64,000 nucleotides of DNA, taken from assembly GCA_030324005.1 (NCBI GenBank), contig JARDVH010000149.1, forward strand, positions 25,229,587 to 25,293,586, given 5' to 3'. Source of the DNA: Negaprion brevirostris. Lineage: Eukaryota. The translations under genes and the position numbers were made by a program. Below, piece by piece: positions 20,086 to 22,370 of the stretch. Numbering within the stretch: the stretch's first letter is position 1; every line of letters starts with the position of its first letter. Below the pieces are notes generated by a model. It was not told the origin of the DNA and searched no databases. It saw nothing but the letters and a program-made list of their open reading frames with translations.

Positions 20086-21789
20086 AAAAAAAAAGCAAGA
20101 ATCAAAAATGGAGTTGCACATTTATATATAGGGACAACAATGAATGTAAATCAAAAATATGATGTTGAGTTTGTGTAAAACATTGGTTAGTCTCCAGTTG
20201 NNNNNNNNNNTTGTGTGCCGTATATCACCTCGTTGTTTTTCACCAATGAAAAGATACCATGAGGGTTCTGTTGAATTATACCAGGAGGGAGAGGTTATAG
20301 TTCTGAAGGAAGGCTCCAAAGTGAAGCATTCATCACTACAGCAATGCAGGCTGTGGGAGAACCAAGCAGATTTTTCCAAAATTATGAAAGGTCTTAGATG
20401 TTATGAATGAAAGACTATTTTCATTGACTGATAGACAAAGGAGCAGAAATGCAATGTTATCACAAATAAATGAAGAACTTGCATTTATCTTTGATCTTTC
20501 ATAACCTCTGGACATCACCAAGCACTTCAAGAAAAGAGGGCTTCCAAAGAATTTATCACACGGAGATCAAATAACCATGTGGCTATTAAGGCAGACACTA
20601 ATGCTATTTAAAAAGGATTGGATGAATGTTAGAGCATGGAAAAATATAAAAAGAATCTACAAAGGTGAGAGCAATAAAATTGAACAGATAGCTTTCAGTT
20701 AAGGAGTTTGCTGCACTGGCTAGGCTGTCTGCATTTCAGCTTCAATTTTGATAGCCACTGCAGAAAGTGCAGCTTCTCTATTTGTTATATTCTGCTATAA
20801 GTGGGCAACTTCCAGCAGTTTCAGTTGAGGGCTTGTTTCACTGCTTGCTACTTTAAGCTACTGCTGAATGCATTGCCTGCTGAAAGGACAGCAAATTGCA
20901 ATGACTGTGATGTTTTTCCTCCGAAAGTTACAAAGTCAATTCCTGGACCCAAACATTGGCATTATTAGCAGGTAAGTTGAGCATTGTGGACAATAATTGG
21001 GAAAATGTAAATTTGGGAAAGTTCTGAGCAGCTTTGATTGCTGTAAATAGTCTTTTGTTCTTTTAAATTCAACATATTAGGAATAATGTCACTTATTCCT
21101 AATGGTATCATGAGACTTCCTGGCACCCGGTCAAACCACTGTATTTTTTTTGCCTTTGCCACAAGCACGGATTGTTCACTGGTCCCTTCTGTGGATTGTA
21201 TCTGCTAGTTGGGTCTTTAAAAGGAGCAGCTTTGTGTTCTTGAATGAACTGTATGTCACATCCTTCAGAGGAATAGAAACAGTGAACAGTATACTTTTTG
21301 TAATGTTTACAGGATGTGCTATGGTCTGCAGTCACATTAAAGCAGTCAGCAGAAGTGAATCAAACACTTTGCAGCATATGCTGAGGCAGCTGAAATTCAA
21401 CAAGCAATTTGACGACAATTTGCTTTAAAACTTTGTTCCTTGGTAGCGACTGTCATTTGGGAGAATCTGACACAATGAATATTTATTCAGCGTGTGACAT
21501 TTGGAACAATTTTAAAACATTTCAAGCAAGAAGTAGCATTGCTAAATTTTATTTCAGCACTTGCACCTTCTTACAGTGCCCATCATGTGGTGGATTTAAA
21601 GGGAGCTTCAATCAGCATGATAANNNNNNNTACCTATGTTAGTATTCCAAAACGTTCGTGTTTCATGGTAATTTCCAATTAATTAAATAAGTTACAGCCA
21701 TTTTAAGCCACTTTACTCGAGATTCTCAACTCTAAAAGAGGATTTAGTTGGGTAGTGCAATTGCAAGGTGGCAAAATAAAGAACTGGCA

Positions 21790-22370
21790 CTTTTCCGAAC
21801 AACTTTCACAAGCTGAGGTCCGTTGCACAGCACTTTACAGCCAGCAAAATACTTCTAAAGTGTGGCCTCTTTTAAATTTTTTTATTTAAAAAAAAATTCA
21901 AATTAAATCCAATTTATGGCCCCCACAGGAGAGACAAACTAGATTTAAACCGACAGGATAAGGCATTGCACCCCATCTTGGGCTTGATCTAATGCTTCAT
22001 CTTAGCCAAAAGGTCGAGATGGCTTTGAAAAATTGCATGAAGCGACGCTTTAGTTGAACCTCGTAGGATACCCTGATCATGGACTCTCCCCTAGCTTCGG
22101 ATATCAAGCTGCCCGATCATTGACTCTCCTCTGCCAGGTAAGTATGTGGCCACTATTGTAATGTAGGAAACTTGGCAGCAAATTTGTCCACACCAAGTTC
22201 CTACAAACAATAGTGAGATAATGATCAAATCGTCATCTTGTGGTAATGTTGATTGAGGAATAAATATTGGCCAGGATGCCAGAGAGAATTCCCCTGATCC
22301 TCTTCAAAATTGTGCTTGTGGAATCTTCCTGAGAGGACAGATGGTTTAACATCTTGACTGAAAGACAAAG
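21790..22370 (-). mobile_element. DeuSINE-like (SacSINE1-type) element, split by the U1/U2 element
   Basis: cactttacagcc…tacttctaaagtgtggcc | actattgtaatgtaggaaac…gttgattgaggaataaatattggccagg…gtttaacatc…gaaagac follows the recalled Deu-domain SINE consensus once the insert is removed. Confidence 0.7.
21868..22145 (-). mobile_element. U1/U1/U2 snRNA-headed retroposon (SINEU-like chimeric SINE) with A-rich tail and 6-7 bp TSD
   Basis: Minus strand begins ATACTTACCTGGCAGAGGAGAGTCAATGATC (U1 nt 1-31; 22115-22145). A second U1 piece AGGGGAGAGTCCATGATCA lies at 22074-22092. U2-like TCTCGACCTTTTGGCTAAGATGAAG (21995-22019) matches U2 nt 7-31 at 23/25. Ends …TTTAAATAAAAAAATTTAAAAGA. Flanked by GTGGCC at 21862-21867 and 22146-22151, interrupting an older DeuSINE. 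Confidence 0.85.

Follow-up and report, generated by a model that had tools for sequence, protein, structure and literature searches.

The 278-bp insert at positions 21868-22145 of the window (the whole stretch of shark DNA analysed here, 64,000 nucleotides long) belongs, with near certainty, to a multicopy family of retroposons derived from spliceosomal snRNAs. Tentatively, we read this family as an independent, recently active class of promoter-less SINEs in sharks, assembled from three spliceosomal RNAs and renewed inside snRNA genes, where a LINE would nick U1, U2 and U4 about 40 nt behind their start, with subfamilies that carry new heads and with a hairpin that would be under selection.

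The insert in the window and its snRNA anatomy

An earlier note on this DNA had described a discrete 278-bp insert with an A-rich tail and a GTGGCC target duplication that splits an older repeat, and on each of these points the closer analysis agreed. The insert lies on the minus strand, the duplication extends to 7 bp (TGTGGCC, repeat D7), and the older repeat aligns continuously across the insertion site, without the insertion, in 7/9 of its paralogues; one of the remaining two carries a 6-nt insertion and the other has no homologous left flank. We provisionally take this host repeat, for which a DNA search of the genome gave 1,173 first-look candidates, to be a Deu-domain SINE (DeuSINE/SacSINE1). 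In the surroundings within the window, no ORF was convincing and Rfam gave nothing that reached its gathering score. SacSINE1, a Deu-domain SINE, is described as common across sharks in the part of PMC5499810 that was available. The features of the site and of the element are as follows, with coordinates given for the window.

21775..21860, plus strand: older host repeat, left part (21-27/40 identities in 6/9 paralogues)
21861..21867, plus strand: target-site duplication, left copy (repeat D7; from the paralogue alignment)
21868..22145, minus strand: whole element, subfamily A copy, about 12% (11.6%) from the family majority
21868..21899, minus strand: T-rich remnant of the U2 Sm site, AATAAA and A-rich tail
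21900..21983, minus strand: second, diverged U2 copy, nt 19-103 (p 0.003)
21942..21992, minus strand: long hairpin derived from the region of the U2 branchpoint stem, conserved across the four subfamilies
21986..22021, minus strand: U2 nt 5-40 (p 0.003), stem-loop I kept, branch-point recognition bases changed
22022..22071, minus strand: U4 nt 23-69, the 5' stem-loop region and then diverged (p 0.013 in the window copy)
22072..22092, minus strand: second, partial variant-U1 unit (repeat D1, matching 22112-22132 at 40-nt spacing)
22089..22145, minus strand: U1 head, nt 1-57 (p 0.003), stem-loop I kept
22145..22151, plus strand: target-site duplication, right copy, whose first base doubles as U1 nt 1
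22152..22370, plus strand: older host repeat, right part (29-36/40 identities in 9/9 paralogues)

As snRNA references we used the genome's own genes for U2 (L031), U4 (L041) and U1 (L049), which were aligned to the window copy and to the majority sequence of its 30 best relatives, with p values taken from 300 shuffles. The majority is 285 nt long and runs, 5' to 3', through U1 nt 1-60, a partial repeat of the head, U4, U2, a second U2, AATAAA and an A tail; over its first 250 columns the window copy is identical at 220/250. The claim that the element starts at U1 nt 1 holds against the genome's own gene, both in the window copy (nt 1-57) and in the majority (nt 1-60, p 0.003), and the second U1 fragment that had been noticed is the unit lying 40 nt further on. 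The only Rfam match in the window copy, to U1, has an E value of 5.5e-4, below the gathering score, and all Rfam matches obtained were to U1 or U2. The majority head, which folds with a z of -3.8, agrees with the variant-U1 genes L055 and L052 at 46/51 and 45/51 positions, as against 43/51 for the canonical gene, and also carries the changed stem I of the variant genes; the variant-U1 gene family of the same genome is thus closest to it. At one locus (L192:3248-3557; G000 C106:64.14 Mb) a 40-nt variant-U1 head unit stands about eight times in tandem before a family copy. The 5' end of U1 in the window copy, read on the plus strand at 22135-22145, is a perfect 5' splice-site consensus; A and B copies lying antisense in introns could serve as donor sites.

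Behind the head, the composition had been given as U1, U1 and U2, which overlooked a piece of U4 (nt 23-69): the majority is identical to the U4 gene at 26/26 positions over U4 nt 23-48 (p 0.003). The U4 Sm site was considered as the source of the T-run that follows the U4 stem and was set aside, as the alignment places this run at U4 nt 55-69. The motif TCGCTTC, reported as preceding the U2 piece, is present in the window copy, where it is a variant within the U4-derived part; it is absent from the family majority. The U2 5' piece, claimed as nt 7-31, spans U2 nt 5-40 (p 0.007 in the majority). What had been called a body of about 100 nt unrelated to snRNA is the diverged second U2 copy, nt 19-103, at p 0.003 in the majority as well, and the element has no body of its own, its length being accounted for by U1, U4 and U2. 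The internal Pol III promoter in a tRNA-, 5S- or 7SL-derived head by which a classical SINE is recognized was not found in the element, which contains internal runs of five T.

Four further U1 and U2 matches in the assembly (L032, L033, L034 and L050) had the top Rfam scores together with 3' halves and flanks unlike those of the other copies; three of them lie on small contigs, and the four may derive from a different organism whose DNA entered the assembly.

Size, subfamilies and age of the family

The earlier note had proposed an snRNA-headed, SINEU-like family as opposed to a plain snRNA pseudogene, and the genome supports a multicopy family, not a one-off chimera, through many candidates, common junctions and several subfamilies. 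A DNA search with the element yielded 3,459 first-look candidates, with 47 matches among the 40 scored, and junctions and ends were common to the 30 copies aligned. An exact 21-mer across the U4/U2 junction occurred 106 times (control 0) and was exact in 3/30 top copies, counts that suggest one to a few thousand A and B copies; an exact 20-mer of the core occurred 861 times (control 0) and was exact in 6/30, 1/29 and 5/24 sampled copies. Independently of these motifs, 80 fixed-position stretches of 10 kb, comprising 668,808 non-N bases, contained seven family copies in six stretches, with none in the reversed control, from which a genome-wide number of 9,448-48,420 copies was estimated. Summed contig depth over the family was thousands of times the flank depth, a ratio that is not a copy number.

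At least four subfamilies were observed, A (285 nt), B (385 nt), C (about 220 nt) and D (about 320 nt), each with AATAAA and an A tail. Subfamily C lacks both U1 and U4; its sequence follows that of U2 nt 3-169 collinearly, apart from short duplications within it. Subfamilies A, to which the window copy belongs, and B carry a head of U4 and U1, the U1 of B being canonical with its stem-loop II rearranged and its core hairpin often doubled. In the B head, U1 stem-loop II, the U1A-binding loop, has moved between the arms of stem-loop I, and the two form a single long predicted hairpin (z -5.1). Subfamily D combines a fresh head of U2 nt 1-39 with a decayed U4 piece and two core hairpins; a search with it gave 1,424 candidates, the top copies being 95-98% identical to the query and to one another. 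Among 30 loci picked by the core motif, 21 were C, six B and three A, one of the A calls being a tie. Nesting points to the order C, then B and A, then D. Median divergence was 9.2% for C, 14.3% for A and 12.8% for B, the values for A and B being inflated by truncated copies; since C is no more diverged than A or B, the periods in which the subfamilies were active overlapped. At seven loci (L013, L026, L027, L106, L131, L193 and L243), family copies share one site in tandem or nested arrangement, and at the last of these loci a D copy stands beside an older family copy.

The second U2 copy folds as a long hairpin (z -3.2, against 0.2 for the same stretch of the U2 gene), the inner helix of which is U2 nt 23-47, a region that forms the weak branchpoint-interacting stem-loop according to the available part of PMC13019295. 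Covariation was assessed in 18 modules chosen by hand from the four subfamilies, with the structure derived from a majority: 89.7% of cells were paired, compared with 33-46% in a control in which partners were slid by 1-3 columns, and 5/11 inner pairs change on both sides. Three of the five hairpin measures exceeded all 500 shuffles, and the other two were matched by 106 and 76 of the 500. Because the copies are related and the structure comes from a majority, these figures represent a few independent compensations (the first module of D, the second module of D, and B) and carry no probability. The two-sided changes suggest that the RNA fold of source copies may have been selected, probably for RNA stability or for capture by LINE proteins. 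A required U4 kink-turn was considered as well and rejected, the youngest subfamily, D, having no significant U4 match.

The empty orthologous site predicted for the window copy was not found, the insertion being shared with other organisms: B and D have contigs that span both junctions of the insert, and F has one that spans the right junction. In organism C, no bridging piece at the insertion site was found among the matches listed. Joints reported as skipping 290 or 298 nt were rejected as an empty site, their sides being 24-25 nt long and derived from paralogues of the host repeat. A younger D copy (L248) is missing from the orthologous site of organisms B, D and G, in which contigs join both flanks; these are three of the four runs compared, the fourth being a second sample of organism A. 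D copies lie 0.7-5.8% from their majority (median 2.2%), and duplications of 14-22 bp flank 3/23 of them, against 0/154 in shuffled pairs. For the old A and B copies the corresponding count of target duplications, 10/28 against 80/400 in the null, is barely above chance. A tails and 5' truncation are present in family copies, and no shared insertion target was found in 59 A and B loci, the flanks of which are diverse.

The candidate partner LINE and the origin of the heads

A 5'-truncated LINE with a poly(A) tail lies inside a U4 gene that has a promoter-like region upstream, and U4 nt 39-55 is found on both of its sides. The gene is one of three U4 genes in a cluster (L189-L191; G000 C163:95.855-95.867 Mb), one intact, one split by the LINE and one cut off at nt 70, and some 280 bp upstream of the split one the other strand carries a D-like copy. 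The best 29 further copies of the LINE include one with U1 nt 39-138 behind it, one with U2 nt 43-186 behind it and one with U2 nt 1-39 in front; behind a related LINE (78%) come U2 nt 46-191 and the 3' flank that belongs to the U2 gene. At another locus (L218), within one unit of a U2 array, the LINE is immediately preceded by a D copy whose A tail is clean, and the next U2 unit has U2 nt 1-37 and then a D head. This is the site of Keno and Utopia, whose 3' flank begins at nt 39 in the available part of PMC4640811. As no snRNA adjoins 26/29 of the further LINE copies and most D copies are also away from snRNA sequences, the preference is weak. In a random 669 kb of the genome, no snRNA stretch was found outside family copies. 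At L267-L268 (G000 C157:37.354-37.357 Mb), variant U2 units recur in tandem every 492 bp and share about 84% identity with L031, the canonical U2 gene.

The LINE protein contains a reverse transcriptase domain (Pfam E 1.5e-6, just under the cut-off), and its homologues add an AP endonuclease and zf-RVT, with a zinc-knuckle ORF1 region in a frog protein. PDB matches were obtained only to L1-like ORF2, and these in the frog LINE homologue. The best named matches of the protein are from Heterodontus, Cetorhinus and Hemiscyllium, which identify the host genome as that of a shark, and no informative name, of Tx1 or any other clade, appeared among the named homologues; the set of domains would point to Tx1 rather than to vertebrate L1. 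LINE copies lie 2.9-7.1% from their majority, an age range that fits D but is too recent for the window copy, whose mover would have been an older relative. A LINE sharing the element's 3' body, which the earlier note had suggested looking for, was not found upstream of 30 loci chosen by the 3' half or of 30 chosen by the core motif. The link between the family and the LINE consists of shared landing sites, not of 3' sequence. LINE coding sequence within 4 kb after U4 was found at 0/23 U4 loci (42 candidates scored).

Variant U1 genes at seven loci (L055 and L160-L165; G000 C194, C793, C1519, C55297, C36157 and C84) share an upstream region with an octamer near -215 and a motif resembling the proximal element near -55, and their stem-loop I is changed yet still paired. 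Promoter-less retrocopies of variant U1 (L168-L171, L180, L181 and L187) indicate that at least one member was transcribed. Of seven matches to the variant-U1 promoter, one (L164) runs on into a U1 stub and then a D copy that is 8% diverged; the predicted promoter there retains the octamer, and its proximal element is partly deleted. The 300-bp spacer of the U2 array has no clear octamer. Across the flanks of 130 family loci, no snRNA promoter and no snRNA 3' part was found, one locus had a LINE piece, and no A-, B- or C-type copy bearing a promoter was seen; the pattern of a D tail followed by U2 from nt 39 onward had no match in the genome. Many gaps of the assembly fall at young repeats (N makes up 16% of the sample), and source loci may be hidden in them.

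The reading that we consider probable is promoter capture involving this LINE lineage, in which a LINE of the L1/Tx1 group would move the family and its source copies would be transcribed from the external promoters of the snRNA genes they had entered. The simplest subfamily, C, is a U2 copy with short duplications inside it and an AATAAA and A tail, and would stand for the starting form. Deletion at the 3' end and successive additions at the 5' end, of U4, then U1 or variant U1, then U2, would have led to B, A and D, if nesting gives their order correctly, and through all this the U2-derived hairpin has been maintained with two-sided changes. With family copies and the LINE situated inside snRNA genes, some of them apparently with promoter elements upstream, a copy in such a gene could be transcribed from the snRNA +1, polyadenylated at its own AATAAA, and become a new source with a new head. 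Transcription from captured snRNA promoters is, on the evidence of sequence, how we would expect source copies to be expressed. Template switching to free snRNA adds heads as well, as seen at single loci, but supplies no promoter.

It is conceivable, if rather unlikely, that heads came only from such template switching, with sources expressed by read-through from unrelated upstream promoters and the copies in snRNA genes being by-products; Kojima offers this reading for SINEU in the available part of PMC4494074. Extra snRNA 5' heads do occur at promoter-less loci (U2 nt 1-58 before D at L274, and further ones at L240, L201, L113, L114 and L153). Consistent with the same reading, 7/23 free U4 fragments have their end at nt 65-70, as does the U4 piece of the element, the flanks of the 130 loci gave no promoter, and template switching is general among LINE clades in the available part of PMC4476161. 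However, junctions are common to many copies of each subfamily, and D and the LINE occur in snRNA genes much more often than the background would give. Read-through should moreover leave common 5' extensions, yet 25 of the 43 copies with a U1 match begin within U1 nt 1-5 and adjoin no common upstream sequence or promoter, as expected if source transcripts start at the snRNA +1.

In principle, the dispersed copies could be retrocopies of a host gene that resembles an snRNA, either domesticated or variant (a diverged U2, for instance), whose role in the cell would be reflected in the conserved hairpin. The collinearity of C with U2, the fold kept with two-sided changes, and the presence in this genome of variant U1 genes with promoters and of a tandem variant-U2 array would all suit such a source; however, successive subfamilies that differ in heads, lengths and ages fit selfish turnover, the U4 stem is lost in the youngest subfamily and the branch-point recognition bases are gone, and no conserved low-copy source locus was found, all of which makes this origin very improbable. 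We give slightly less credence still to homology with crocodilian SINEU, by common ancestry or horizontal transfer. The architecture is the same in the available part of PMC4494074 (a U2 core, then recurrent U1 and U2 heads, poly(A), and a link to a Tx1-type LINE), but the SINEU described there have no U4 piece and are known from crocodilians only, whereas in the shark element the U1 head and the U4 piece match, respectively, variant-U1 genes and the U4 gene of the genome that carries it; with heads that match variant genes of the same genome, the shark family likely originated independently of SINEU. Finally, that there is no family at all, only a sum of independent chimeric retropseudogenes in a genome rich in plain snRNA retrocopies and with some heads peculiar to single copies, is refuted for practical purposes by hundreds of exact matches to motifs unlike every snRNA gene, by diagnostic changes and junctions, absent from the genes, that are common to the copies, and by the 95-98% identity of D copies to each other.

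Implications and comparison with known retroposons

The shark elements constitute a second, larger and recently active family, which indicates that the snRNA-headed class of SINEs can arise again, and they add U4 to the building blocks of SINEs. If the tentative reading given at the outset holds, this would be the first SINE to contain U4 and would explain in general how elements of the SINEU type come to be transcribed. Two loci lend themselves to testing promoter capture, the D copy behind a variant-U1 promoter and the D copy with the LINE in the U2 array, and related sharks can be compared by presence/absence markers from the young subfamily D. Targeting by a LINE of a single favoured position in each of three snRNA genes would be unusual. 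The family also confounds the annotation of snRNA genes in shark genomes.

In the literature available to us, partly in extract, SINEU is the only class of snRNA-headed SINE besides the shark family. SINEU-1, -2 and -3, with U1 and U2 heads, are described from crocodilians only, with transcription left open, in the available part of PMC4494074, and their transcription is still called "not yet demonstrated" in that of PMC5786205. Nothing on sharks or U4 in the context of snRNA-headed SINEs appears in the available parts of PMC5786205 and PMC7245038, and a search of the openly accessible journal literature found no shark SINE with an snRNA head or U4 content.

Like SINEU, the shark family is short (<500 bp) and non-coding, ends in a 3' poly(A), has a 5' head from U1 or U2 with recurrent 5' snRNA additions, seen in subfamilies A-D and in further mixed heads, and forms a multicopy unit with shared structure. 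The available part of PMC4494074 adds further likenesses, namely a simplest form that is U2-headed, internal T runs, and target duplications in only some insertions. SINEU was likely moved by a Tx1-type LINE (PMC4494074, same part), and the candidate partner of the shark family is the LINE that shares a U2 landing site with D. Unlike SINEU, the shark family contains U4, is not crocodilian, and has copies behind predicted snRNA promoter regions. Its body is wholly U2 by internal duplication, whereas the 3' half of SINEU-1 is of unknown origin and SINEU-3 is an internally deleted U2; it numbers about 2e4 copies, against approximately 7,700, 1,600 and 1,058 for SINEU; and it is associated with snRNA genes, SINEU with Mariner-N4_AMi (all for SINEU from the available part of PMC4494074). 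By description, then, the family would be set beside SINEU, sharing its structure and differing in its range outside crocodilians and in not having the Mariner target.

Keno, of the Tx1 clade, and Utopia are LINEs that target U2 genes, with a 3' flank from U2 nt 39 in the available part of PMC4640811. As in these elements, the candidate partner LINE has a reverse transcriptase and its homologues an AP endonuclease, and both the LINE and D occur in U2 at or near the Keno site. In contrast to Keno, the 3' flanks here begin at U2 nt 43-46, not 39, and the LINE is also found in U4 and U1. Where Keno inserts specifically into U2 with a flank from nt 39, 1/29 further copies of the shark LINE is followed by U2, from nt 43, and its specificity is weak by comparison, 3/29 further copies lying at snRNA sequences. 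The snRNA/LINE chimeras and tailless snRNA retropseudogenes in the available part of PMC4476161 resemble the shark elements in having 5' snRNA pieces fused to retroposed sequence, and this shark genome, too, contains such fusions as single loci. Those chimeras, however, are one-off events, whereas the shark family propagates as a unit with subfamilies.
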